28,709 nt of DNA, from IMG/VR virus record IMGVR_UViG_3300038412_000041, one strand, 5' to 3'. Of the stretch, positions 3,264 to 28,023 are shown piece after piece. Under the pieces are notes generated by a model. That model saw only the letters and a list, made by a program, of their open reading frames with translations, ran no database searches and was not told where the DNA came from. Position 1 is the first letter of the stretch. Every line of letters starts with the position of its first letter. This stretch comes from a virus (lineage: Duplodnaviria > Heunggongvirae > Uroviricota > Caudoviricetes). Made by a program: the position numbers and the translations under genes.

Positions 3264-3467
3264 TTAGTTTTGCACGTTAGAGAAAGCCTTCCAGATACTA
3301 TCACTAATTACTTTAGTAATCTGAGTATCAGGAAAGCTACTGTCAGTATAACCATGCAAATGTTTACATTCATAAATTCCTTCAACACCTACACTGCGGA
3401 TAGCGTTAAAAATAATCTTTCCTTCTGGATTGCGATAAAATCTTTCTACCGTGTTCATTTTATTCAT
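3264..3467 (-). CDS. hypothetical protein
   Basis: 67-aa ORF overlapping the upstream endonuclease stop and filling the gap on the coding strand. Confidence 0.55.
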   Translation of the reverse strand: MNKMNTVERFYRNPEGKIIFNAIRSVGVEGIYECKHLHGYTDSSFPDTQITKVISDSIWKAFSNVQN

Positions 3468-5148
3468 TAACCTCTACAGTATTTAAATATATCCAACGTT
3501 TCTTTCCAGAATCATATATTCTAGGTATACCAAATTTTTCGCAATTTTCTCTCTCCGATAAAGACTCATTGAAATTATTACCAAGCAGCTTACGTAATGA
3601 ACTTCTACGTGTAGAGGATTTATGGACTCTTCTTTTGTTGATTATTGGATAATAATCTGGTTTTACATAACCATCAAATGAGAATCCTAACACTTCATAC
3701 ATGTTACCTGTAAACCAGTCATTAGCAGAGTAACTTATTATTTTGGTTGGGTTGTAGTCTCTAATAAAGGCAGTGAACAGTCTTGAAGCACCTCCAGCTA
3801 TATTTCCTACAGAAGCAAAACGAACTAGTTCAAATTCGGTAGGTTTACTTTTTATTCCTCTAATGGAGCGTATACGATCAAAGGACATTAAAGCGACACA
3901 TCTTTTTCCATCAAACAACCCATATGAAATTATAGGTTTTCTTGGTGCTCCTTGTATATGATTTTTATCAAACCAAGCAGCTACAGCTTTAAATGCTGTT
4001 CCTTTCCAGACACGCAACTTTCTAGCTTGAAACTTTTCAGTGGTAAGTCCTAAAATATGTCGTAGCGTTTTTAACACTACACGTTTATTAAACTCCAATT
4101 CGTCTTCGTATATATGTATAAGACGCCAACCTGCTTTATTTGCCGCTTTTGTTTTGTTCGCATGGTATGAAGGACCTATTCTATCTTCAGAGTGCCAAAA
4201 TAGTCCATTTACTTCTATAGCTATCTTTTTTGAAGGGATAACAATATCTAATTCTTTAGGTGCGATTACTTTTCTATCAGATTGCAAAGCATCAGAAAAT
4301 CTTTTCTTTATCCAGTTGAATAATGATTGTTCTATGTCAGAAATAGGCTTTCCATTGTTGCATATAGGACATCCATGACCTGAACTTAATGAAGTACCTA
4401 GTGCGTACCATATATGTTTACATACTTTACATAGAACTTTGCACTTTTTCTGTGAACCGGCATAATGCAATATCTTTATAGTAGGACTAATATTTGATAT
4501 TTCAGTATTGAATTGATCTTTTGGTTTTAACTGAAGTCTATAAATTGGCTTTGCTTCTTCAAGGCAAATATTGCATACATGTTTACGTTGTAACAACTCT
4601 GCCTTTTTAATACCACTTACTTTATGAATTGAACAGTACCACTTTATAGGTTTTCTTAAGCCTTTATACTTGGATATTACTTTTATATGTGGTCGTTTAG
4701 GAAGAGTATTCAAAAAGTCTTCATGACTATTTATAAGTCTTTTTCTTAATTCCTTTACTTTGCACTTTGCACAACAACCTGAAAATGTAGATGCTACGTA
4801 TCTAGGTTGTGCTTTGTATTTTCCGTGTTTTGAGCACTCATAGTTTGTTTCTTTTCTATCACCTAAATAAGGTCCTAAAAACTTTATATTAGGTAAATAT
4901 TTTTCTAGATATATTAAATGTTTATTTAACCATCTTGCATTTTTAGATTTTTTAAAGCCTTCATTAGAACACTTTGAACAACCATAAGAGCCCAATACCT
5001 GTTCAGGTATAGCATTGAACTTGATACTATGAGTTGTACATATAAAAATAGAACTATTCTTAAGCCCTTTAAAGTCTAAAACTTTTATATGTGGACACCT
5101 ATCTAAAAGCCTTTTTTTCATTACATCTAGTGTTACTTTTTTTGTCAT
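3460..5148 (-). CDS. Hef-like free-standing homing endonuclease 1 (4 Zn-finger repeats + Vsr/EDxHD-like nuclease + Mom/GNAT-like C-terminal domain)
   Basis: Four Cxx(H/C)...CxxC repeats; nuclease core ELDIVIPSKKIAIEVNGLFWHS...GWRLIHIYEDE; C-domain NHIQG...FELVRFAS...GGASRLF...IISYS...GNMYEVLGF. The likely start is the ATG at 5148, 5 nt after GAGGT; the ORF-track start is 5163. Confidence 0.8.
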   Translation of the reverse strand: MTKKVTLDVMKKRLLDRCPHIKVLDFKGLKNSSIFICTTHSIKFNAIPEQVLGSYGCSKCSNEGFKKSKNARWLNKHLIYLEKYLPNIKFLGPYLGDRKETNYECSKHGKYKAQPRYVASTFSGCCAKCKVKELRKRLINSHEDFLNTLPKRPHIKVISKYKGLRKPIKWYCSIHKVSGIKKAELLQRKHVCNICLEEAKPIYRLQLKPKDQFNTEISNISPTIKILHYAGSQKKCKVLCKVCKHIWYALGTSLSSGHGCPICNNGKPISDIEQSLFNWIKKRFSDALQSDRKVIAPKELDIVIPSKKIAIEVNGLFWHSEDRIGPSYHANKTKAANKAGWRLIHIYEDELEFNKRVVLKTLRHILGLTTEKFQARKLRVWKGTAFKAVAAWFDKNHIQGAPRKPIISYGLFDGKRCVALMSFDRIRSIRGIKSKPTEFELVRFASVGNIAGGASRLFTAFIRDYNPTKIISYSANDWFTGNMYEVLGFSFDGYVKPDYYPIINKRRVHKSSTRRSSLRKLLGNNFNESLSERENCEKFGIPRIYDSGKKRWIYLNTVEVNE

Positions 5149-5165
5149 CATATACCTCAACATAA

Positions 5166-8932: not shown

Positions 8933-10396
8933 TTAGCATTGTTGTTTTGCTCCTGTATTCCATGAATACACTGCATTGCCACTGTTAAAAACTCTTGAGA
9001 ATCCTGCTTTTTCCATGTTTTCTTTTTCACTTAAATTAGAATCAAACTGTTTGCCTAGTAGTTTTAAAAGTTTGTGCTTTTGTGTTCTATATCTAGGTAA
9101 TACGTCTTTGTTTTTCAGCCAGAAATACCCTGGCATTGTTGAAGTCAAATAATTGAAACCTAGTTTACTGTAGACTGAACCATCACCATGATCTAAATCA
9201 GCGTATGATATTACGCTAGTAGGTTGATACACTTTAACAAAGTATGAAAAGAGTTTTGATGCTCCACCTACTACAACAGTATTTAGCTTAGAAGATAAAC
9301 GCAATATCTCCCATTGATACTTTTTGTTAAATCTAGGCTTATCCAAAGTCATAACGGATACCAGCTTTTCTTTATAGAATAAACCTAAACAAACTTTGGC
9401 GTACACACTTCCTTGTATATGAGTAAGATTAAGGAATTCTGATGCTTCTTTTGAGTCTATCTCTTTTACCTCAGTATCTCTGGCGTATACTCTTTTCTTA
9501 GCCATACCTAGTTTCACTCGGAGCATTGACTTTACTATTGGTGCCTTGTTAAGCAACTCATTTTCCCATAGATGTATTAGTTGGATTCCTTTTTCTTTTG
9601 CTTTTAACGTTTTGTGTTGGTGGTAAGCTTTAGGTTTATCTTTATGCCAATGCAAACCGTTAATTTCTATGCCTATATTGTGCTTAGGTAGTAAAATATC
9701 AATCTCTTTTCCTTCAAGTATTGTTCTATTGTTTAATTCTATATTGATACCTTCTTTAGTCAACCAGTTACAAACGGATTTTTCAATTTTACTAGGACCA
9801 CAGTTAGAACATTTAGGGCAACCGTGGTTTTGAAGATGGTCATCTGCTTTTTGTTCAAAGATAAGGTTACATCGTTTACATAAAATAGCTATCTTGTTTG
9901 AACCTAAAGTGTAGCAAACTTTTGAGTAATCGTATTTCTTACCATGCACAGCTTCTGCCTGTTTGACGTATTCTTTCGTAGTCTTTGTTTTAGACAACGT
10001 TCTTTTAGCATTTCCGCAAGTAGGGCAACCTTGTCCAGCAAGATGAGCGTAAGGTCTTTGTTGGAAAGTTTTATGACATACCAAACAAGATATATCAATT
10101 TTCCTATGACCATTAATATACTTACCGTACTTGTACACAGAACCGTGTACTGTTTTAGCCTTGATTTCAAAATCTTTTTGAGATAGTATCTTTTTCTGTG
10201 ATTTGCTTTCGTTTCCGCAAGTAGGACAACCTTGTCCATGAAAACGGTTGTGTGGTGTTTGTTTATAAGCTCCGTGTTCAGGACAAATAATTACCACTTT
10301 TGTCCTGATATTTACAAACACCACTTTTGAGTAGTCATCTTCTGGGTTGAGTGCTACAAACCTTTTTATGACTTCTTCTTGTGTTAGTCTACGCAT
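8933..10396 (-). CDS. Hef-like free-standing homing endonuclease 2 (3 Zn-finger repeats + Vsr/EDxHD-like nuclease + Mom/GNAT-like C-terminal domain)
   Basis: Repeats of the form YDYSKV...IC..HG..Q...GQGCPTC; nuclease core EIDILLPKHNIGIEINGLHWH...LIHLWENE; C-domain THIQG...WEILRLSS...GGASKLF...ISYADLDHGDGSVYSKLGF. Same architecture as 3460-5148. Confidence 0.82.
   Translation of the reverse strand: MRRLTQEEVIKRFVALNPEDDYSKVVFVNIRTKVVIICPEHGAYKQTPHNRFHGQGCPTCGNESKSQKKILSQKDFEIKAKTVHGSVYKYGKYINGHRKIDISCLVCHKTFQQRPYAHLAGQGCPTCGNAKRTLSKTKTTKEYVKQAEAVHGKKYDYSKVCYTLGSNKIAILCKRCNLIFEQKADDHLQNHGCPKCSNCGPSKIEKSVCNWLTKEGINIELNNRTILEGKEIDILLPKHNIGIEINGLHWHKDKPKAYHQHKTLKAKEKGIQLIHLWENELLNKAPIVKSMLRVKLGMAKKRVYARDTEVKEIDSKEASEFLNLTHIQGSVYAKVCLGLFYKEKLVSVMTLDKPRFNKKYQWEILRLSSKLNTVVVGGASKLFSYFVKVYQPTSVISYADLDHGDGSVYSKLGFNYLTSTMPGYFWLKNKDVLPRYRTQKHKLLKLLGKQFDSNLSEKENMEKAGFSRVFNSGNAVYSWNTGAKQQC
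10011..10238. repeat. 27-nt direct repeat pair (26/27 identical) within the Zn-finger units
   Basis: TTTCCGCAAGTAGG(G/A)CAACCTTGTCCA at 10011-10037 and 10212-10238, 201 nt (67 codons) apart. Both copies encode GQGCPTCGN. Confidence 0.85.
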
Positions 10397-13404: not shown

Positions 13405-13921
13405 TGTTTGTCTCTTCAAATTTTGGTTTTAGTTTTTGCTTTTCCCTAATAAGCTCAATATTTTTCCAAACCCGGTCCAATTCCTTCATTCCAGCCTCAT
13501 GCATATGTTCCGTGTTTGCTATACACAAGGCAGCTAATGTAATCATAACTCCTCCAATCTCTTGCTCTACTTCACCTACTGGTCGGCTGTAAACATGATC
13601 TACTAACTTGTGTGCTTTATCTTTAGATAGACCGAGTGCTTGAACAAGCTCTATCGACTCCTCTAAGAATCGCATACTACGTTCTTTTTTATCAAAGACT
13701 ACAGATTCCTCAAAACACACCTCTAACCACAGATAAACATTTGATTGAAATGTTGCATAGGCATTCGCCAGATCAAGCGTTGTTTTAATCTTTGTGACGT
13801 TGCGTTTTCCAGGTATACCTAACGTGTATTGGTTTTCCAATTTTGCAGCCTGAATCTTTTTAGAGCTATCAACCAAATCAAATAAATCACGTACAAGTAG
13901 GTTGTCATCACTATCATTCAT
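13397..13921 (-). CDS. MazG-like (all-alpha NTP pyrophosphatase) protein
   Basis: ERSMRFLEESIELVQA...EQEIGGVMITLAAL fits the EExxE...E-x-G/D metal-binding pattern. The likely start is MNDSD at 13921, overlapping the dnaB stop. Confidence 0.65.
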   Translation of the reverse strand: MNDSDDNLLVRDLFDLVDSSKKIQAAKLENQYTLGIPGKRNVTKIKTTLDLANAYATFQSNVYLWLEVCFEESVVFDKKERSMRFLEESIELVQALGLSKDKAHKLVDHVYSRPVGEVEQEIGGVMITLAALCIANTEHMHEAGMKELDRVWKNIELIREKQKLKPKFEETNNG

Positions 13922-16900
13922 CTTCGTTGTCCTCACTCAAATCTTTAAGATAACCACCACTAGGTTTTTCAGATTCATCGTCTTCTTCCTCTTCACCTTC
14001 TGGTACATCATCGGATGCATAGATAAGACCTGTATCATTATTAGACAGCAGTTGGAATCTAAACAGTGTCAAGTTACGAGCCTTCAACTGTTCAATCTCC
14101 AAAGTCATTATATCCGACTCATCTTTAGGAGCAACCCACAACCAGGCATGGTTCGAATTGTGTGTCACAACACCATTTGCAACATAACTGTTTGTCCCAG
14201 GAACAGTAAGATCGTACACTTTTTCTTCACCTAACTCTTGTATATCAACAATGGTTATAAAACGACAATGTTTGTTAATATACAGGCTTTCAAAAAGATT
14301 GTAAAATTCTGAACCTTTAAACACTGACATTAGTGTTTTCAAATCACTGTAATTAAATCTAGGTATATAATCGAGATAGAATTTTCGATTCAGTTTTAGA
14401 AAACTACACTCTAGTAGAGTTCGCAGCTTTTCTCTAATATTAGAGAACCTATATGTGGTTGAGTTTAGCATACTAGACAATGAATCATTAACGATACTAG
14501 GAAGATAATCTGTCGAATCATTGTCAACTGCTACGTTAAACTTTTTTAAGTTTGTGATAGAAATCAAATCTATAAATTTTGATGCATGGGCTCCTGTAAC
14601 TTGTACTTGATTTTTACATATACGTGATTTAATACCTAATCTTTGTAAAAGAAGTTGAATTCTAATGCGTTGTACTTTAGATATAGACGACACAGAAACT
14701 CTATTATGCGTTGTCGTCCCATCACCATCAAATAAACCTGCAAGGTAAGAACACACTACTTGTTTGCTTGCATTCAAAACAATATCAGGAACATATTTCT
14801 GTAAAGCTTTACCTCGCATTCCTTCAATAGACAATAAGAATCTATTCAATTCCTTATTGGCAGAGTATAATCGCCAAATCGCTACTTTTTTCTTCGTGTG
14901 TTGTTTCTTCTCTCTATATGAAGCTTCTCCAAATTTTGATATCCAACAGTTTTTAAACTTTTTAAATATGTCATAGTCTGAAGCTACAAACTCTACTCCG
15001 TATTTTCCAAGATAACCATCACTAGACAAACAACCTAAAATATAACCCAAATCTTCGTCAATTTTCAACTTTCCATTAAATGAAAATTGATTATTGCTAT
15101 GTATTTTAGGGGACGCTACATCTATAATAGAAGCATTGCCAAATTTACCAGGTTGGTTATCTACAGCAATGTAATCATTAACTCTTAAGGATGATAACTC
15201 AAACCAGTCTACATTTCCTTTGGAGTCTATCTTTCTAAATCTGTGTTTTCCTGTAGCTTTTATAGTCATGCCATTACTTAGCACAAGCTGATATACCTTT
15301 CTAATACCATTGTAGTGTACATGACTGGCAGAAGCATACTTATCTTCAGTTTTTACATTGATACCTATCAAGTTGCGGGAAGACATTACTATTGAATTTG
15401 GAAACAAGGAGTCTATACGAATCAAACCTTTATCTGTATCTACAAGAGTATCTCCTGTTACACAATGCTCCAACATTGTCTGGGAATATTTAACTGCTCC
15501 ATCCTTATTTACCTGTACCAAAATCACAACAACAATATCATGTGCCTCGGCATAGCGTTTTGCATATCTACAGATATCGCCAAGTTTTTGCCACTGAGCT
15601 TCTGTCGTTCCAGACCCAGAATCTTTCAAGAGTGATACATAGTCAATGAGAATTACATCATAACCATAAGGCTGCAACGTATGCAAAACATCTTCAATAT
15701 TGACATCATTGTAAGGCGTATATATGGAATAACGTGTTCGATTCTTCTTTAATCCAAGTACCCACTCTTTGTACTTCTCGTCAAGAATCTTGCGTTCCTG
15801 ATCCGTTATGTTATGCTGGCTGATCCTAGAAACAGAAATGTCAGCAAGCAAGGCTTCAAGTCTAGCAGTTGCTTGTTCAGCACTCATTTCCAGACTAACC
15901 AAGGCACAATCATTTGCTAGGTCAACCATGTTCTTTAACAGGTTGACTGCCATTGAAGTATTATGAGTCACAAGACCGTTGGCAATATAGGAACGATTGT
16001 ATGGTACAGACAAGTCATAGACGTGTCGTTTCTTGAACGTCTCTCCTACATCTAAAACTCTTGTCCATTGATAATTCAGTATTTCTTTAAATTCCTCTCT
16101 GTTAAGAGACAATACGTCCTTTCTTGATAAGGCAACTGACGTATTGGATTCTTTAGGTGCTAGTATTCCAGAAACCGGAATCATGTCATAGTCTTCAGGT
16201 CTGTATGAGTACCAGATCAGATCATATGTTCCACCACCATAAATCTTTTTAGAGGCTCTGCGAAGTATCTTGTTATAGATGCCAAGATTATCCATCAAGG
16301 CTTTAACACCTAAAAGAAAAGTCGTAGAAGCGTGTGTCAACAGATAACCTTCTCTACAAAGAAGGGCACTCTGAAATACACCTAAAACAAAAGCATATTG
16401 AGTTTTAATCGTTGTCCTTACTTGTCTCGGTACTATTCTGTTTCTCACAGAAACATCTAGGACACTGGAAACAAGCTTGGTGTTTTCCAGATTTATCCGG
16501 TACACGTTATCAGTAGGATTAGCTTTGTAAACATGCTTGTAGTAATCAGATGCACCAACCTGAGATAGAATGTCTTTGATTGATTCCTCAGTCTTTGCAG
16601 CGTCACTAGTAGAGCGCAAGTTGAATGTAGGTCTCTTTCCGTCAGAAAGCAACATGCCGGTCAAGAAGGCATCAGCTTCTGATACCTGTGAGGTCAAAGA
16701 TTCGCACATAGTACCAAAATTGCAAGCTACCCACATATTTGGTTTTAGCTCACATAGTTGGACCCATTGCATATCTCCATCAATGTAAGTCAACATTTTG
16801 TGTTCTTTCAAACCTTCAGTTCTTGCTCCTTTATCAGTGATAACATACCAAGTTTCGCCGATTGACTTATAGGTTGCATCTACCGAATGATATTGATTAT

Positions 16901-17627
16901 CGCTGGTCAATACTCTAGTATTGTTAGGCAAGAAACCGATAGACTTTGAGTTATGCAATTCTTCCAGAGTTTGCAGTCCGTCTTCTGTAGGAACTAACGT
17001 GCTACCAATTAAACATTTGCCACCACCTGTATTAGCACCGATTAGCACTAAAGAACCATTCAGAAATCCACCATTACGGTCATCGTATGGAGCAAAACCA
17101 GTAGGTACAAATGCTGGTCTGTCTTTACCTAACAACTGCTTGTGTAGCTTTAAACTGCTGTTGCCTTTACCAAAGTGGAATATCTCTTGCTTGACTGTTC
17201 TCTTCTGTCTGGCTTCTGACAATAACTTTGAGGCTCCGTCAAGAATTGCTTCAACGTCAGCCGAATCTTGCGAGAGCCCTTCATCAATAAGTTGCATTGC
17301 TTTTAAGGCACCTCGTGCTTTTCTGTACTTGTCCAGCACGTCAATCATGTGCGCTACTTTCTTCTTGTCATTGGCTGGAGAGCCTTCAAATCTTTTAAGA
17401 ATCGTCCTAATGTTTTCAGGAATACTTGGAAGATTGCAGAGTGTTTCCCACTCAGGCAAATCTCCAGTATCCCTAGCTAGCTTCCTAATGTGCTTATACG
17501 CTTCTCTAGCTGGAGGATAATGAAAACTACTAAGGTCGGTACTTCCCAACAAAGCACCACCTAAATCTTTATTTTCACAGATGGTCTTGATGGTTCGCAT
17601 TTCTACACTTATTGATAGCAATTTCAT
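13914..17627 (-). CDS. dnaB: DnaB-like replicative helicase precursor containing two inteins (spliced product about 449 aa)
   Basis: VPTGF..YD...GG, Walker A GANTGGGK|T, VSLEMS, ILIDYV, LVQVN, KYSQTMLEH|SN and the LKARN arginine finger. The extein length of 1237-352-436=449 aa fits DnaB. Confidence 0.93.
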   Translation of the reverse strand: MKLLSISVEMRTIKTICENKDLGGALLGSTDLSSFHYPPAREAYKHIRKLARDTGDLPEWETLCNLPSIPENIRTILKRFEGSPANDKKKVAHMIDVLDKYRKARGALKAMQLIDEGLSQDSADVEAILDGASKLLSEARQKRTVKQEIFHFGKGNSSLKLHKQLLGKDRPAFVPTGFAPYDDRNGGFLNGSLVLIGANTGGGKCLIGSTLVPTEDGLQTLEELHNSKSIGFLPNNTRVLTSDNQYHSVDATYKSIGETWYVITDKGARTEGLKEHKMLTYIDGDMQWVQLCELKPNMWVACNFGTMCESLTSQVSEADAFLTGMLLSDGKRPTFNLRSTSDAAKTEESIKDILSQVGASDYYKHVYKANPTDNVYRINLENTKLVSSVLDVSVRNRIVPRQVRTTIKTQYAFVLGVFQSALLCREGYLLTHASTTFLLGVKALMDNLGIYNKILRRASKKIYGGGTYDLIWYSYRPEDYDMIPVSGILAPKESNTSVALSRKDVLSLNREEFKEILNYQWTRVLDVGETFKKRHVYDLSVPYNRSYIANGLVTHNTSMAVNLLKNMVDLANDCALVSLEMSAEQATARLEALLADISVSRISQHNITDQERKILDEKYKEWVLGLKKNRTRYSIYTPYNDVNIEDVLHTLQPYGYDVILIDYVSLLKDSGSGTTEAQWQKLGDICRYAKRYAEAHDIVVVILVQVNKDGAVKYSQTMLEHCVTGDTLVDTDKGLIRIDSLFPNSIVMSSRNLIGINVKTEDKYASASHVHYNGIRKVYQLVLSNGMTIKATGKHRFRKIDSKGNVDWFELSSLRVNDYIAVDNQPGKFGNASIIDVASPKIHSNNQFSFNGKLKIDEDLGYILGCLSSDGYLGKYGVEFVASDYDIFKKFKNCWISKFGEASYREKKQHTKKKVAIWRLYSANKELNRFLLSIEGMRGKALQKYVPDIVLNASKQVVCSYLAGLFDGDGTTTHNRVSVSSISKVQRIRIQLLLQRLGIKSRICKNQVQVTGAHASKFIDLISITNLKKFNVAVDNDSTDYLPSIVNDSLSSMLNSTTYRFSNIREKLRTLLECSFLKLNRKFYLDYIPRFNYSDLKTLMSVFKGSEFYNLFESLYINKHCRFITIVDIQELGEEKVYDLTVPGTNSYVANGVVTHNSNHAWLWVAPKDESDIMTLEIEQLKARNLTLFRFQLLSNNDTGLIYASDDVPEGEEEEDDESEKPSGGYLKDLSEDNEDE
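14157..15464 (-). mobile_element. intein 2 in DnaB (436 aa) with LAGLIDADG homing endonuclease
   Basis: Starts CVTGDTLV; block B IKATGKHRF; endonuclease motifs ILGCLSSDG and YLAGLFDGDG; ends VYDLTVPGTNSYVANGVVTHN with +1 Ser. Confidence 0.93.
15960..17015 (-). mobile_element. intein 1 in the DnaB Walker A motif (352 aa) with degenerate LAGLIDADG domain
   Basis: Starts CLIGSTLV after GGGK; EGLKEHKM; FLTGMLLSDG; second motif FVLGVFQSA lacks the acidic residue; ends VYDLSVPYNRSYIANGLVTHN with +1 Thr. Confidence 0.93.
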
Positions 17628-21445: not shown

Positions 21446-21889
21446 TTAGTTAGCCCCGCTTATGAAATTTACTATAGGATGTTCAACCTTCCTGACTGCC
21501 AAATAATGAAGACTCTCATTTCCATGGAATACTAGATTCTTTGCTATCAAACGTTTGTGAATCTTTGCTTGCGACTCGATCAAAGATGTTGGACTCAAAC
21601 TCCTGCGGTAAAACATTGCGTGGTACAAATCCACCTTCATATTTAGAGGACTGTGTATTAGATAACCAACTGATATTCCTGCTATGTCTCCTAATCGTAT
21701 ATCGTACACGTCCATATTTGATGCGCTCAAGGTCTTGTTGTGAGACAAGATCAATGAGATATTAATGGTTCTCTTGAAAAAGAAGACTGCAACTGCAATA
21801 GGCTTATACACAATTGGATAGAATATTCCAGGATTATCCCTGTAGTTCTTTAATCTATCCGTTACATCTGCGCCGTGTAGCTTTTTCAT
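21446..21889 (-). CDS. hypothetical protein
   Basis: 147 aa with an ATGA overlap with the clamp gene stop. Confidence 0.62.
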   Translation of the reverse strand: MKKLHGADVTDRLKNYRDNPGIFYPIVYKPIAVAVFFFKRTINISLILSHNKTLSASNMDVYDIRLGDIAGISVGYLIHSPLNMKVDLYHAMFYRRSLSPTSLIESQAKIHKRLIAKNLVFHGNESLHYLAVRKVEHPIVNFISGAN

Positions 21890-22923
21890 TGCTCTTCCTG
21901 TGTAGTTAGAGCAGCAGATATGAGAGCTCCTTTATCTGTGCTGTGAACTAACCAAACAAGTTTTCCGTTGTAACCCAATAAAACTTCCGAGTCTTTTTGG
22001 TACCTATAAAGAATGTCGAGAAACAATGAAGGGTCTACAGAAAAATCTGCTTCTTTCTTGACGGTAGCTGTCACCACTTCCTTAAACTTTGCTTTGCCTG
22101 TAGTGCTAATCAAAATCTTGTTGTTAGATGTTTTGATTTTCGTTGCTGCACCTTGTTCCGCAATTGATGCTGCACGTTCAAGTGCTTCTATCAGATCGGC
22201 AACTATGATATTGCACAGACCTTTACCAAAGCTTTTTGAGAACTCTTCTAGTTGTGGTAGTCCAGGGCCTTCTTCTGGTTGAATGGCTGGTAATACAAGA
22301 TACGTGTCTGAAGTAGCTGCTGACATTGTGCCAGCACCTATAGAAAATTTTAGGCCCTCTTCTTCAGGAGGTACTGCTGCCAACAGATTTGCTATATCTA
22401 CCGATCTTGTTCTTAAGCCTGATGCTTCCTTGCTTTTGACTCCAGACTTCCACATGCAAAAATGGATTCTATCCCATGTAGCGGATAGGAATCCTGTGCT
22501 ATCACAGTTAAAGCTGTAGAGCAGATCACCCATCATCGGAGCCAATGTTGTGGCACTCGAAGAGAAGTGTAATTCTTCCGCACACTTTTTACTAAGACCT
22601 GTTTCAATGTTTTGTAATTCTGGTTCTGTGTAAGGCTCATAAGATAACTCCGCTTTATAAGATGCAGTGCTGATTGTAATTGTTGATTTGTCAACTATAA
22701 GGTTCACTATACCTTTCAAAACTTTTTTCAATTCATCAGGTCGAATAGCTATATGGAAACTATCCTTAGAGTCTGTAGCAAACGACTTTACAAATGTCTT
22801 GCCTTCATTACTGGCAGATAATGTGACTTTCTGTTTGTTTACAGACAGGTTTACTAATTCACTGCCAGTAACCACCACTACATTTTTTAACTCATTAAAA
22901 AGAGTTGTTCCATTAATCTTCAT
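21886..22923 (-). CDS. dnaN: DNA sliding clamp, beta-subunit (DnaN)-like
   Basis: 345 aa, the size of a beta clamp. MKINGTTLFNELKNV, DLIEALERAASIA and FSVDPSLFLDIL resemble DnaN segments. GAGG RBS; two genes from the polymerase. Confidence 0.68.
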   Translation of the reverse strand: MKINGTTLFNELKNVVVVTGSELVNLSVNKQKVTLSASNEGKTFVKSFATDSKDSFHIAIRPDELKKVLKGIVNLIVDKSTITISTASYKAELSYEPYTEPELQNIETGLSKKCAEELHFSSSATTLAPMMGDLLYSFNCDSTGFLSATWDRIHFCMWKSGVKSKEASGLRTRSVDIANLLAAVPPEEEGLKFSIGAGTMSAATSDTYLVLPAIQPEEGPGLPQLEEFSKSFGKGLCNIIVADLIEALERAASIAEQGAATKIKTSNNKILISTTGKAKFKEVVTATVKKEADFSVDPSLFLDILYRYQKDSEVLLGYNGKLVWLVHSTDKGALISAALTTQEEQ

Positions 22924-22942
22924 ACTATTCCTCTTTTATAGT

Positions 22943-22950
22943 TATTTACA
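22943..22950 (-). promoter_or_regulatory. candidate promoter box TGTAAATA upstream of the clamp gene
   Basis: Lies in a 31-nt intergenic gap. An identical octamer is in the gap upstream of polA (28129-28136). Confidence 0.35.
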
Positions 22951-22954
22951 GTAT

Positions 22955-23644
22955 TCAGTTTAACGGCACTGTTTGTTTTTGGATGTATCTAATCATGTAA
23001 GAGAGTACTGATAGGTTATCATGGGCAAAGGTTTTAAACCATGCTTGTCTGAATCTACCTACCAAATACATTGGGTTTAGAACACACAATGAATCTCTTA
23101 CATGGATAGGCATGGCTATAGTCTCATTCTGTTCAACATCACTCATTAAAGAAATGGCTTGCTCCATATGACAATGATCAGTACTCCAAACAAGGGCTAC
23201 AGTTTTTCTATGACGAACCAGCCACATGTTCAATACAACATTGTTTGCGGCCAAGTGCAGCATAGGTCTTCTACTCAATAGCGCGACACTTGATACCCAG
23301 CGACCACTATTGTTAAAGACTTTGCCGTTAATCAGGTCTGCATATTTTATGCCTTCTTCTCTAACACCATTAAGCTTTAAGAGTTTTGCTGCATGTTCTT
23401 TATATGTAGGTCCTCCATTCCATTCAAGATATGTAGAATCTCTTGATGGTACAGGCACCACATGTGTTGGTTTACCCATCATTGCATAACAACTAGCATT
23501 TAAATAGGTAGAGTCATTTTCAAACGAGTGCCTGTTATCTTCAAATGATCCATGCACAAGTAGCTCACTACTCCAATGGAGAAAGGTAGATATCTGCTCA
23601 CTACCATGCAATACCAAAACGCCACACCAGTCTGCGTTTTTCAC
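22955..23644 (-). CDS. hypothetical protein
   Basis: 229 aa with a GTG start overlapping the polA stop (GTGA). No family confidently recognised. Confidence 0.68.
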   Translation of the reverse strand: MKNADWCGVLVLHGSEQISTFLHWSSELLVHGSFEDNRHSFENDSTYLNASCYAMMGKPTHVVPVPSRDSTYLEWNGGPTYKEHAAKLLKLNGVREEGIKYADLINGKVFNNSGRWVSSVALLSRRPMLHLAANNVVLNMWLVRHRKTVALVWSTDHCHMEQAISLMSDVEQNETIAMPIHVRDSLCVLNPMYLVGRFRQAWFKTFAHDNLSVLSYMIRYIQKQTVPLN

Positions 23645-26600
23645 AGTTTCACTCCTTTCTCTCGCAGCGTCTTCCCAAGACCATTCTTAAAGTCCTTACT
23701 GTTAGTGTCAATATGAATGGCATCTTTCCAATCACTAAGTATAGGATAATGCTTGTCCAGATACTCACGCTGTTCCTTGTACTTTGGATTTCGGCGTATC
23801 TCGTAAAGCTTTGCTTCTAATTCTTCCGGGTCTGTACCATGAATCTCACCATGCTTCACAAATGCCTTTTTCATGATTTCAAGTAATGTATTTTCGTGCC
23901 AATCCCATTTTACTAATGTGTCATCAGATGCACCTATCTCAAACTCGATTTCAGGCTCCACATAAAACTTTACGCCAAAGTGCTTGGTATAGTATTCACA
24001 AACACCTATAGTCGCACACCATTGTAGTATTTGTAGACTTGCTAATGCTAGGTCTAGTTCAGCTACAGTTTTCACTGCATCATGGACAAATGACACAGTG
24101 CCACTGTCAAATCTACCTTTGCGTAGCTTGAATTTCTCTACATATTGATTCAGATGTACATCATACAGATAGCCAGCAGTCTGCCCTAGATCAGATGAGA
24201 TACCTTGAATTGGTGCATTAGCACCACGTCGTTCAGCACCTGCACTAAGATTATCAAGACCAAACAGGTGACTGAAAATGTTACGCACTCTACCAATCTT
24301 TGATACTGTGTACCCTTTAGTTACTGCTGCTTTCTTTTGAGAATCAAGGTAGTTTGCGCCTTTAGTGAAACGCTTAAAGAACCGTTTCATAAGATTTGCT
24401 ATTAGGTCTTTTGCCTGCTTCGCTTGTTTAGCAATTGATGCAGCACCTCTACCATAAATTGATCCAAATACGACACGCTTGATCGAATCGCGTTGTTCAG
24501 GTGTCACCTTGTCTACAGGAATCTCGAAGAAAAAGTTACAATTGAGTTTATGAATATCACCTACAGTATCCATCAACTCTTTGAATATTGGATTTCCTGT
24601 TTTTCTATACTGCTGTCTTAACCAGCGACCATTAACGAAAAGCTGACAAAGCAACAAATCACTACTCTCAATCGCCCACATTCTCACTTCATGAGCGCAA
24701 TTATGTACTATCAAACCATTAGCTACAAAAGCAGGGCGTTTTTGATCCTTCATAGTTAAATCAAAAACATCCGTGAGACCTCCTTCTTTTATTGATACTA
24801 TAGGTGATATGGATACATTATATGAATTATATTCTTGTAGTTGTGCTTCTGACATGTCATTCTTTTGTAAGGTAGGTAACTTACCCATACTAGAACTTTT
24901 TTCCACACAACCTTTTAACTTTTTTGAAATGCTTAGTTTATTTAAGCCGCTACCCCATATCTTAATAGAGTCCTCTACACTTAGACGTAACTGAGTAACC
25001 GTTTTTGTTTTACTAAAAGTTGTATATAATCCGTAACTATTTAATATTGCCTGCATACCGCGTAACAATTTAATACTAGCACTAGACCAGTTCAAACTTT
25101 TATTTTGCTGTATATGTCCATCACACTCTAAATAGGCAGACAAAAAACCTAACTGAGATTCTTTATCTGCTTCCAACACACTCCATGGAACATGTTTAAA
25201 ATGTGATGCAGTTTTACCATTTTTTCTACCTATCTGTGTATAAATACCTAATTCTTTCAACCAGACTACAAGTTGTTTAGACCGAATACGTACAACTAGG
25301 TGATCGTAGTTGTTATTATAAATAACTCCATTGTATAGCCTATTATCTCCTGCTTTATGTGCTATCCTGTATGAAGGCTTTACTCCGAATACTCTATAGA
25401 AGCTATCTATGTACCGTTTAATCAATTTTCTATTAGAGTTTGAAAAACTTACATTATTGCTATTGGTATCAATCCAACCTTCTGAAACTATGGCACCTAA
25501 CAACCAAGCCAAATCAGGCGTCATTATTTTCGGTTTTTGTATCTTTGCAAATGACATGGAACTTGTTTTTATATCTCTACTAGCACACCACAAATCTCTT
25601 GCTTTTACTGCATCTTTAATGTTATTGAATCCTATAACTTTATAATATTTTTTGGTGTTAGGTATTTTAATTTTAACAAGATATTTGTAAGTGGAATACT
25701 TATATACATTATTGTAACCAGAACTATTATTTGCCTGTACACCTAAACTGGACAAAGTTAAAGGCAACTTTGTTCTTCTAACAAGTTCAAAGTTGGATAA
25801 ACATAGATTGTCACCTAATACACAATGCTTTGCTTCTACCCAAGAAAAAGTACCTTGTCTAAAAACAAGCATTTTGTGTTCTGGTGTTACACGTATATAA
25901 TTTCCAGATTTCGTTTTTAAAGCTATGGTTTCTTTCTTACCCATATACGTTGCAAATACCGCAACATTGTCTCCTTTTATACTTTTAACCTTAGTCTGTA
26001 TTTCTGTTTTAACATAAGGTTTCTTTGTAGCCAGAGAATCTAATCTAACTAAACCATTGTTTGTAGGTATCAAAGAATTACCTGCAACGCAATAATCGAA
26101 TTTGATAGTGATGCCATTCTTGGGTGCTACAAAAGCTCGTTTGATTACCTTGGCCAAAGGACCACGCTGAATAATATTTTGCAGATTTGGATCAGAAGAA
26201 TTTGGTCTACCTGTTACCGTATCCAAGTATCCAAAGTTAGGACGAAGTCTATGGTCAGACATATCCTTATCTTCTTGTAGCTTACGTAAAAATCCAACTA
26301 CGTATGTGGATTTTACCTTATCTACTTGGGCCAAGTTTTTGAACGCTTCTACCTCTGGTATCTTTTTATATACCTCTTGAAACTCTTTATCTATACTTGG
26401 ACCTGTTTTTCCATAAGATACAGGTTCCAAACCAAGCTCATCAAAAAACAATGCATGTTTATGACTAGGCTTTGATAAAGAAAATATCCAGTTAACGTCA
26501 CCAAACAAAGAATCTTGCGGTATACCTGCAGCTTTCAAGAGTTTTGTGTTGACTGCTTTTACTGAAGGAAGACTAATGAATACTTCTGTCAGCTTTTTCT

Positions 26601-28023
26601 TGATTTGATCTAGAGGTCCATTTGCAAGCAGTAGTGATTTTAACCACTTGATATCTAGAAAATCTCCTCGGTGTTCCATCATTGACTGAATATGGATAAT
26701 GTTGCTCATCTGTAGCAGCATCATCTTTTTGTAGGATTCAGTGTACATCTTTCCGTTTATCAGTTTCTTTGACCTCTCTAACTGCTTTTCATAGATCAAC
26801 CAAGGTATGGTTGCATCTGCACCGCAATAGTCAATAAGTCCAGGTTCATCTATTGGTACATTGGCAATGTTCATTCGATCCTGTTTGCCAAATGCATTCT
26901 CAGAGTAAAAGTCACAACCGTACCACTTAGTTATCCACTCTAAAGAGAATGATCCTACCCTTTTACCAAGACGATTACCTATAAGATTCTCATCTAACAG
27001 GTACTCACCAGCCATCAAATCCCAAATAGGCCACTGTATAACCTGAAGCTTCAACCACTCTCTAAAAACGGTAAGATCAAATTTCAAGTTTTGACCTAAC
27101 ATAAACTTGTTAGGATCATAAGACAGAGTATCAAACTTTTTGCCAAATAGCTTCCGCATGTCGCGTCTGATTATCAAGACCTCTTCTTCGGAGAATGGAG
27201 AGTCTTGGTGTTCGACTGGAACCACATATGCTACCTTTGAAGAAAACGCAAACTGCATAAACAAAACTGTTGGATGCTTCCTACTCAAATCAACTGTTTC
27301 TGAGTCAAAGCTGAAGGCATCTACCCGCATTAATACATCAAACAGCTTTTTCCATTTGTCAATGGTATCTACTAGCTTTGTATTAGGTTTGAATTGAATG
27401 TTGTAGACAGGTTTTCTGGCAAGTGCATTACCTAAGCATTTTGACAAAAATCCCGCTAAATTCGCTACTTTTTGCGATTCCTCAGCTTCCTCTATATCTT
27501 TTTTGCTTTGATAGGCCGCAGACAAGTTTGGACCTCTGGTCCACCAGATACCGTCGTCTCTTTTTATTGGTCTACCTTGGTAGAAGAATGCGTCGCGTTC
27601 CTCGATATCTTCAAGATATGTTGAAGCCATTCTACCGAAGACAAAAATATCTGTAGGCTTGACTTTGTTAATGTATTTTCTGATACGAGATACCGAAACT
27701 CTACTGGCTACTTCTTGTAAGTTTTGAGGTAGATGCCGACACCTAAAATAGTCAAAGTTTATAGCAGCTATTTCAGGCATTCTAATACCTGAATAGTCTT
27801 GAGCCAGCTTTACGAGATTGTTGAGCAGGTTGCCTTGAGTAGCAGATAACAGTCTGCCGCTCTCAATATCTTCAGTATCAATAAACTCATAGATCAACAA
27901 GATTCTACGTTTTGCAGAAGACCAGGACGAGGATATTGGAAGACTGACGTTAAAAGGATACGTCTCTTTGCTTGCAATGTTAGCTGGAATAGGGTAGTCG
28001 TACTTGATATACTTAAAATTCAT
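23641..28023 (-). CDS. polA: family A DNA polymerase precursor: degenerate UDG-like N-domain, 3'-5' exonuclease, polymerase and one intein (spliced product about 996 aa)
   Basis: ExoI FSFDSET, ExoII GQNLKFD and ExoIII YCGADA; TVTGRPNSSDPNLQNI; IKRAFVAP; motif A FDY|CAHEVR; DIH; motif B KRVVFGSIYG; NAPIQG; motif C FVHDA. Confidence 0.95.
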   Translation of the reverse strand: MNFKYIKYDYPIPANIASKETYPFNVSLPISSSWSSAKRRILLIYEFIDTEDIESGRLLSATQGNLLNNLVKLAQDYSGIRMPEIAAINFDYFRCRHLPQNLQEVASRVSVSRIRKYINKVKPTDIFVFGRMASTYLEDIEERDAFFYQGRPIKRDDGIWWTRGPNLSAAYQSKKDIEEAEESQKVANLAGFLSKCLGNALARKPVYNIQFKPNTKLVDTIDKWKKLFDVLMRVDAFSFDSETVDLSRKHPTVLFMQFAFSSKVAYVVPVEHQDSPFSEEEVLIIRRDMRKLFGKKFDTLSYDPNKFMLGQNLKFDLTVFREWLKLQVIQWPIWDLMAGEYLLDENLIGNRLGKRVGSFSLEWITKWYGCDFYSENAFGKQDRMNIANVPIDEPGLIDYCGADATIPWLIYEKQLERSKKLINGKMYTESYKKMMLLQMSNIIHIQSMMEHRGDFLDIKWLKSLLLANGPLDQIKKKLTEVFISLPSVKAVNTKLLKAAGIPQDSLFGDVNWIFSLSKPSHKHALFFDELGLEPVSYGKTGPSIDKEFQEVYKKIPEVEAFKNLAQVDKVKSTYVVGFLRKLQEDKDMSDHRLRPNFGYLDTVTGRPNSSDPNLQNIIQRGPLAKVIKRAFVAPKNGITIKFDYCVAGNSLIPTNNGLVRLDSLATKKPYVKTEIQTKVKSIKGDNVAVFATYMGKKETIALKTKSGNYIRVTPEHKMLVFRQGTFSWVEAKHCVLGDNLCLSNFELVRRTKLPLTLSSLGVQANNSSGYNNVYKYSTYKYLVKIKIPNTKKYYKVIGFNNIKDAVKARDLWCASRDIKTSSMSFAKIQKPKIMTPDLAWLLGAIVSEGWIDTNSNNVSFSNSNRKLIKRYIDSFYRVFGVKPSYRIAHKAGDNRLYNGVIYNNNYDHLVVRIRSKQLVVWLKELGIYTQIGRKNGKTASHFKHVPWSVLEADKESQLGFLSAYLECDGHIQQNKSLNWSSASIKLLRGMQAILNSYGLYTTFSKTKTVTQLRLSVEDSIKIWGSGLNKLSISKKLKGCVEKSSSMGKLPTLQKNDMSEAQLQEYNSYNVSISPIVSIKEGGLTDVFDLTMKDQKRPAFVANGLIVHNCAHEVRMWAIESSDLLLCQLFVNGRWLRQQYRKTGNPIFKELMDTVGDIHKLNCNFFFEIPVDKVTPEQRDSIKRVVFGSIYGRGAASIAKQAKQAKDLIANLMKRFFKRFTKGANYLDSQKKAAVTKGYTVSKIGRVRNIFSHLFGLDNLSAGAERRGANAPIQGISSDLGQTAGYLYDVHLNQYVEKFKLRKGRFDSGTVSFVHDAVKTVAELDLALASLQILQWCATIGVCEYYTKHFGVKFYVEPEIEFEIGASDDTLVKWDWHENTLLEIMKKAFVKHGEIHGTDPEELEAKLYEIRRNPKYKEQREYLDKHYPILSDWKDAIHIDTNSKDFKNGLGKTLREKGVKL
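24700..26091 (-). mobile_element. intein in PolA motif A (464 aa) with LAGLIDADG endonuclease and AP2-like insert
   Basis: Starts CVAGNSLI; block B IRVTPEHKM; motifs LLGAIVSEG and FLSAYLECDG; ends VFDLTM...FVANGLIVHN with +1 Cys. Confidence 0.93.

Follow-up and report, generated by a model that had tools for sequence, protein, structure and literature searches.

Polymerases of the Pol I type (family A) are low-processivity repair enzymes, and the only well-understood route by which such an enzyme has become a replicase is, to our knowledge, that of bacteriophage T7, in which the polymerase thumb captures host thioredoxin. The present study deals with a family A DNA polymerase (PolA) and a DnaN-type sliding clamp encoded close to each other by a virus of the class Caudoviricetes (IMG/VR record IMGVR_UViG_3300038412_000041). 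The stretch of DNA analyzed (hereafter called the window) is 28,709 nucleotides (nt) long, and the polA and clamp genes of this phage lie on a metagenomic jumbo-phage contig of 189,810 bp. An earlier note on this DNA, made from the sequence alone, drew attention to the pentapeptide QDSLF in the polymerase thumb and proposed that the phage may make a Pol I-type enzyme replicative by placing a clamp-binding peptide there and supplying its own clamp.

A partnership of this kind is an old proposal. In 2011, Kazlauskas and Venclovas (PMC3201878) described homologues of PolA, polIII-beta, and polIII-gamma in the phages RSL1 and Ma-LMM01 and suggested that the clamp serves PolA; a clamp loader of RSL1 was reported in the same study. 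The RSL1 polymerase belongs to the same clade as the PolA of the window (E 4e-156), and that of Ma-LMM01 falls outside this clade. Iyer et al. (2021; PMC7824862) described a subgroup of jumbo phages that encode a T7-like polymerase together with an RFC-like loader and in which no clamp could be detected. If that subgroup is the same as the one examined here, the divergent DnaN described below plausibly fills this gap. Thumb inserts were discussed in a reclassification of PolA in 2023 (PMC10201439) and in structures of UDG-fused PolAs in 2026 (PMC13697223), neither of which mentions a clamp-docking peptide. A beta-clamp-binding QxxLF motif was also predicted, with support from structure modelling, in the vestigial exonuclease domain of actinobacterial PolA2 (APEX) in 2026 (PMC12926913). 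Our literature search found no paper that unites a clamp-binding motif, jumbo phages, and a DNA polymerase. Therefore, as far as we have found, a mapped docking site at the thumb tip is apparently unpublished.

The observation behind the earlier note was confirmed, and its interpretation was supported computationally, with corrections regarding the glutamine of the motif, the weight of co-occurrence, and priority. We assign a rough probability of 0.65 to the reading that the DNA of this phage is replicated by a family A polymerase with proofreading activity, which a motif at the tip of the thumb tethers to a DnaN clamp encoded by the phage itself.

Results

The motif lies in a thumb-tip insertion of a family A polymerase

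The polymerase gene (P0001; 23641..28023, minus strand) encodes 1460 amino acids (aa), of which approximately 996 remain after splicing. Its product scored 144.2 bits against the Pfam family DNA_pol_A (PF00476; cut-off 34.3), also matched DNA_pol_A_exo1, and matched phrog_17 with an E value of 5e-78. A model of residues 200-655 generated with AlphaFold2 (AF2) from a 44-sequence alignment had a predicted local distance difference test score (pLDDT) of 89.6, and its top Foldseek matches were the Klenow fragment and Bst Pol I. By its Pfam score, its exonuclease and thumb folds, and its catalytic motifs, P0001 is a polymerase of family A (Pol I type).

The 3'-5' exonuclease domain (approximately residues 218-420; 26764..27372, minus strand) matches PF01612 and has intact DxE, NxxFD, and YxxxD motifs. 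Within the 44-sequence alignment, D240, E242, F315, Y399, and D403 are invariant, and N312 and D316 are nearly so. The intact motifs are consistent with a replicative role for PolA. The domain is preceded by an N-terminal extension of approximately 200 aa (27424..28023, minus strand), which has no Pfam match and is covered by phrog_17 from residue 24.

The earlier note correctly assumed that PolA is spliced. A LAGLIDADG intein of 464 aa (C645-N1108; 24700..26091, minus strand), recognized with the Pfam families Intein_splicing and LAGLIDADG_3, splits polymerase motif A (DY|C..HN|CAHEVR, the ends being read from the translation), and homologues without an intein are approximately 1000 aa long. 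Motif B reads RDSIKRVVFGSIYG. Motif C reads VHDA (residues 1312-1315; approximately 24079-24090, minus strand), in which the catalytic Asp is retained. The second acidic residue of motif C has been lost throughout the clade: every member checked has VHDA or VHDS, in contrast to the canonical HDE of Pol I and T7.

The reverse complement of positions 26500-26517 is CAA GAT TCT TTG TTT GGT and is read directly as QDSLFG, from Q503 to F507 and G508. Therefore, the position given in the earlier note for QDSLF, 26503-26517, is exact and corresponds to PolA residues 503-507 on the minus strand. The pentapeptide fits the QL[SD]LF or QxxLF consensus of bacterial clamp-binding peptides. The segment FSLSKPSH..LFFDELGL, which the same note took for the conserved part of the thumb following the motif, was aligned by HMMER with FNLSSTKQ..ILFEKQGI of Klenow.

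We then located the insertion site in a MAFFT alignment of PolA, T7 gp5, Salmonella Pol I, two further bacterial Pol I sequences, an N4-like PolA, and a Loughboroughvirus PolA. The jumbo-phage polymerases carry an insertion of approximately 28 residues between the end of thumb helix H and the FNxxS helix (H1), at which site bacterial Pol I has none and T7 gp5 has its thioredoxin-binding insert (approximately 71 columns). The two insertion sites coincide, in agreement with the placement suggested previously. The PolA insert has no sequence similarity to the thioredoxin-binding domain and is a positional analogue of it, not a member of the same family. Based on this alignment and the secondary structure of the AF2 model, the insertion spans approximately residues 484-513 (26485..26574, minus strand). 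It is modelled as a single helix (486-499) followed by a loop (500-518) that bears the motif and has a pLDDT of approximately 83.

A short core of the motif is conserved without its glutamine

Conservation was assessed in 44 jumbo-phage PolA homologues with identities of 29-60%. Column 505 contains G in 16, S in 15, T in 8, and D in 5 sequences; column 506 contains L in 24, I in 12, and M in 5; column 507 contains F in 30 and W in 11; and column 508 is G in 40 of the 44. Q is present at position 503 in only five of them. Therefore, the conserved element is [GSTD][LIM][FW]G and not QxxLF. Of the QxxLF motif, the conservation of which the earlier note proposed to examine, the homologues keep the core and mostly not the first residue. 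As judged from the alignment, the family motif retains positions 3-5 of the bacterial QL[SD]LF.

Among cultured relatives, the site reads PKNSLFG in GR7B, PQGSLFG in SKa-4, PSKGLFG in PhiXhv-15, QKNGLFG in RHph_N42, KAGFLFG in BcepSaruman, PKFGLMG in JA13, and KAKSLFG (KAKSLFGG with the next residue) in RSL1. The flanking columns have an entropy of approximately 3 bits, and indels of 0-5 residues follow the conserved G. A kept core amid variable flanks and indels fits the pattern typical of a short linear motif in a surface loop.

A divergent sliding clamp is encoded two genes downstream of polA

The clamp gene P0002 (21886..22923, minus strand; 345 aa) is the second gene downstream of polA, behind a 229-aa open reading frame (ORF). 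P0002 is only distantly related to characterized clamps. Alone, it scored 17.7 bits against Pfam DNA_pol3_beta_3, below the cut-off of 27, and the single sequence thus does not qualify as a member of the Pfam DNA_pol3_beta family. It matched phrog_947 ("processivity factor") with an E value of 3e-11. A word-indexed homologue search with P0002 returned the query itself only, and neither a megablast search of the region nor a tblastn search of the clamp against the phage collection gave a match.

An exhaustive HMMER search recovered 18 relatives of 342-366 aa, apart from one fragment of 136 aa that was kept out of the alignment, and the resulting 18-sequence profile matched the beta clamps of the PDB over all three domains with an E value of 5.6e-13. 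In hhalign, P0002 residues 1-341 were aligned against residues 1-359 of E. coli DnaN with a probability of 86%; the identity to E. coli beta is approximately 13%. The AF2 model of P0002 had a pLDDT of 93.8 and a predicted template modelling score of 0.86, and its best Foldseek matches were all bacterial DnaN proteins, aligned over the full length with template modelling (TM) scores of 0.74-0.79 and, for solved beta clamps, of 0.76-0.78. As judged from the profile and the predicted fold, P0002 is a real, highly divergent three-domain clamp of the DnaN type, as the description of this gene as DnaN-like had implied.

The motif is modelled in the peptide-binding cleft of the clamp

Docking of the motif on a clamp dimer, which the earlier note had envisaged, was modelled with two copies of the clamp (18-sequence alignment) and the PolA thumb (residues 464-589; 44-sequence alignment) together with controls, and the partner chain was scored. 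The interface score (ipSAE, interaction prediction score from aligned errors) was 0.66 in each of three runs, and the best of three controls reached 0.01. A mark of 0.66 is attained by 58 of 80 solved complexes and by 2 of 110 mismatched pairs, counts that are rough for a complex of three chains built on custom alignments. The runs shared at least 95% of contacts, and the pLDDT of the partner was at least 79.

On the thumb, the modelled interface comprises residues 498-507, 509, and 511, with S505, L506, and F507 held most tightly. On the clamp, it comprises residues 130-131, 150, 152-155, 219-220, 224-225, 228, 257-260, 297, 322, and 339-342. The hhalign alignment to E. coli beta places clamp residue 150 at T172, 152-155 at G174-L177, 224-228 at D243-V247, 297 at N320, and 322 at S345, which adjoins V344; residues 339-342 correspond to approximately M362-R365 by extrapolation just past the aligned block. 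These E. coli residues belong to subsites I and II of the peptide-binding cleft and, since the modelled contacts map to them, the model appears to reproduce canonical docking. L506 and F507 are placed in the canonical cleft between domains II and III, beside the C terminus of the clamp. Several cleft positions keep their character among the 18 clamps: W, F, or L at 150, H154 in 15, F155, D297 in 16, and L339.

Motif, clamp, and clamp loader occur together in related phages

The clamp profile detected one gene each in GR7B, JA13, BcepSaruman, SKa-4, RHph_N42, and PhiXhv-15, and the clamp gene of RSL1 was found with phrog_947. Thus, motif and clamp were both present in seven of the seven cultured relatives searched. 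The clamp gene follows polA at a distance of a few genes in GR7B, JA13, SKa-4, and PhiXhv-15 as well as in a metagenomic contig (P0020), the PolA of which has the motif and an adjacent clamp gene. The motif is missing from the thumb site of T7 and of the N4-like phage Kuerle, which served as negative controls, and Kuerle also lacks a clamp gene.

A clamp-loader ATPase (phrog_5846; PF13177 and AAA) was found in five of the five cultured genomes searched. With the loader annotated in RHph_N42 and that reported for RSL1 (PMC3201878), motif, clamp, and loader are present in all seven cultured relatives. The loader gene lies directly 3' of polA in RHph_N42 (L006:10178-11311) and in another metagenomic contig (P0028; L036:13713-14864). 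These two are more distant members of the clade and have the loader, not the clamp, just downstream of polA; the clamp gene of RHph_N42 is located away from polA, and in the P0028 contig a search up to 10 kb from polA revealed no clamp gene.

A separate arrangement was noted in Salmonella phage S144 (53 kb), in which a clamp-like gene that matches phrog_947 (E 7e-46) and is annotated "DNA polymerase beta subunit" lies directly upstream of polA (L021:1342-3312 and L021:347-1345). The S144 PolA has no thumb insertion, and its N terminus reads MSFLFDG. S144 may represent an independent pairing of PolA and clamp with an N-terminal LF motif.

Neighboring genes

All genes of the replication module in the window are on the minus strand: an intein-bearing DnaB, a ResIII helicase, the clamp, PolA, and the beginning of an NAD-ligase gene. 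The head and packaging module, also on the minus strand throughout, comprises a portal, a protease, and an intein-bearing terminase.

The 229-aa gene between polA and the clamp gene (P0003; 22955..23644, minus strand) has a GTG start codon that overlaps the polA stop codon and has no Pfam or PHROG match. A homologue with 24% identity (E 7e-17) lies directly behind polA in the P0020 contig (L035:13238-14077). Downstream of the clamp is a 147-aa gene (21446..21889, minus strand) with a 4-nt overlap with the clamp stop codon. Its homologues (129-154 aa) lie directly 3' of the clamp gene in GR7B, SKa-4, PhiXhv-15, and the P0020 contig, and share with it the motif L-G-x-x-G-x-x-VGY-x-x-x-x-P. Pfam, PHROG, and Atlas searches gave no lead for either neighbor. 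We speculate that the 147-aa product could be an accessory subunit of the clamp or the loader.

Besides PolA, the DnaB-like helicase (13914-17627, minus strand) is split by a LAGLIDADG intein. The terminase family phrog_17415 matches the intein region of DnaB, and its profile seems to contain an intein. Two large paralogous genes resembling HNH or homing endonucleases (3460-5163 and 8933-10396, both minus strand; phrog_559, E 1e-87 and 2e-127) lie on either side of the module with the portal and protease. Beyond the end of the window, the same phage has two adjoining 2-oxoglutarate (2OG)-Fe(II) oxygenase genes and an InPase-family gene (L033:7925-9141), located between a tail-fibre module and an SNF2 helicase, which may have a role in the modification of DNA or nucleotides.

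Discussion

The results obtained suggest a mechanism in which PolA would reach processivity through a ring. A gamma- or RFC-like loader, encoded elsewhere in the phage genome, presumably loads the clamp at primed sites. L506 and F507, carried by the loop at the tip of the PolA thumb, would then enter the hydrophobic cleft formed by domains II and III of the clamp, and the ring, encircling the product duplex, would keep the polymerase on DNA from the thumb side. The effect would be like that of thioredoxin on the T7 thumb, exerted by a topological clamp. We infer the binding of the clamp by the polymerase from the complex model; a gain in processivity and a loader in the genome of this phage are presumed.

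Several points weigh against this reading. The modelling of the complex departed from the conditions under which the ipSAE score was calibrated. Because many complexes of beta clamps with peptides have been solved, the score may also partly mirror likeness to known structures. The residues of the clamp interface are no more conserved than the average of the protein (permutation p = 0.17). Since the motif loop is already confident in the model of the monomer, it could be packed rather than free. The residue lacking in most homologues, Q, is the most conserved position of bacterial clamp-binding motifs. The co-inheritance of motif, clamp, and loader extends throughout the clade and probably reflects one evolutionary event; therefore, their co-occurrence does not constitute independent statistical evidence. 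No clamp loader was found in the window or in the approximately 61 kb of the genome of this phage read around it. A 60.9-kb Logan contig upstream of polA contains an SNF2 helicase, 2OG-Fe oxygenases, and baseplate and tail-fibre genes, but no loader, and a tblastn search with the RHph_N42 loader, run against the window and every locus, gave no match in this phage.

According to the main rival explanation, the [GSTD][LIM][FW]G loop could instead be a structural or DNA-contacting element of the thumb that confers intrinsic processivity, with the clamp docking elsewhere on PolA (e.g., on its conserved C-terminal extension) or serving other clients. The loop is not disordered in the model, in which D504 and V510 form a beta-bridge; G508 is nearly invariant, as is expected for a structural turn; and DNA-gripping thumb inserts in this region have been documented for SP15-like PolAs (PMC13697223). 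However, the complex model puts this loop, and no other surface of the thumb, in the canonical cleft while the controls remain near zero, and variable flanks with indels are unusual for a packed core. Furthermore, an insertion is also present at this site in the N4-like PolA, where LFG is lacking, and the phage concerned has no clamp. As to docking elsewhere, close relatives share a conserved C-terminal segment, YLDKHYP..F.NGLGK, but its conservation is confined to the nearer subclade. For the same reason, we considered and rejected a clamp-binding site in the C-terminal tail of PolA, as in T4 gp43. We regard a structural or DNA-contacting role of the loop, with the clamp engaged elsewhere, as unlikely.

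The other explanations concern which clamp is bound and whether the match means anything. QDSLF fits the bacterial QxxLF consensus, E. coli Pol I is reportedly stimulated by beta (cited in PMC3201878), and phages such as Mu are known to exploit host beta. Hence, the motif might recruit the host clamp instead of, or besides, that of the phage, which would be employed otherwise, for example in late transcription or repair. This is highly improbable in our view: Q is not kept across the family, in each of the relatives studied the motif has been inherited together with a phage clamp and loader, and the phage clamp retains a hydrophobic cleft into which the motif fits in the model. A chance match without specific function has some arithmetic on its side. 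By a rough estimate, the proteins of the window, which total approximately 9,500 aa, should contain approximately one Q..[LM]F, and they contain the relaxed pattern [STGDA][LIM][FW] approximately 30 times; therefore, QDSLF alone is not beyond chance. However, the core is kept in at least 40 of the 44 homologues, down to 29% identity and amid variable flanks. Its location and its family-wide conservation at this position raise the motif above chance, so that pure coincidence is scarcely credible. A search for further clients of the clamp, based on motifs at the ends of the remaining window proteins, was uninformative because the relaxed pattern occurs too often.

If docking of the thumb-tip motif on the phage clamp is correct, it would be, as far as we have found, the first site of clamp docking to be mapped on a replicative polymerase of family A. 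The phage would possess a hybrid replisome of PolA, beta clamp, and gamma-like loader that is not known from cells, and this would account for PolA-based replication of phages of 190-270 kb. It would also constitute a second, convergent solution at the thioredoxin site of T7 and offer a compact, transferable tag with which family A polymerases may be made clamp-dependent. We are inclined, with somewhat less assurance than for the phage itself, to view the tip of the thumb as a recurrent docking point, used by T7 with a thioredoxin-binding domain and by a clade of jumbo phages (RSL1, Salmondvirus, Sarumanvirus, GR7B, and many uncultured phages) with a minimal [GSTD][LIM][FW]G peptide for a phage clamp of the DnaN type.

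Comparison with known systems

The bacterial clients of the beta clamp (Pol III alpha, Pol II, Pol IV, Hda, and MutS) resemble the PolA of the window in the type of pentapeptide and, in the model, in the cleft used. However, their motifs are mostly terminal or located in disordered linkers, whereas that of PolA is in an internal loop of the folded thumb. Moreover, the phage family does not keep Q, keeps a Gly after the Phe, and pairs the motif with a clamp that has diverged far from E. coli beta.

Among family A polymerases, actinobacterial PolA2 also has a predicted beta-clamp-binding motif backed by modelling. PolA2 is a cellular and probably low-fidelity repair enzyme with the motif in a loop of the exonuclease domain and the host clamp as partner. 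In contrast, the enzyme described here would be a phage replicative polymerase with an intact exonuclease, a motif in the thumb, and the phage's own clamp. The UDG-fused PolAs of SP15-like phages and YerA41 (PMC13697223) share with it N-terminal extensions and insertions in the thumb region that have been proposed to raise processivity. Their inserts are large helical bundles that grip DNA and were proposed to substitute for a clamp, whereas the short loop in the present PolA is proposed to recruit one.

T7 gp5 is likewise a replicative polymerase of family A, the processivity partner of which is recruited by an insertion located between thumb helices H and H1. The T7 insert has approximately 71-76 aa and binds host thioredoxin; here, approximately 28 aa would bind a ring clamp of the phage through a short peptide. 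The closest likeness is to RSL1, a phage of more than 150 kb with the same set of genes, namely, a family A polymerase, a divergent DnaN-type clamp, and a gamma-like loader. The partnership in RSL1 was deduced from gene content only, with no docking site on PolA (PMC3201878), whereas the present study maps and models such a site in the loop at the tip of the thumb.

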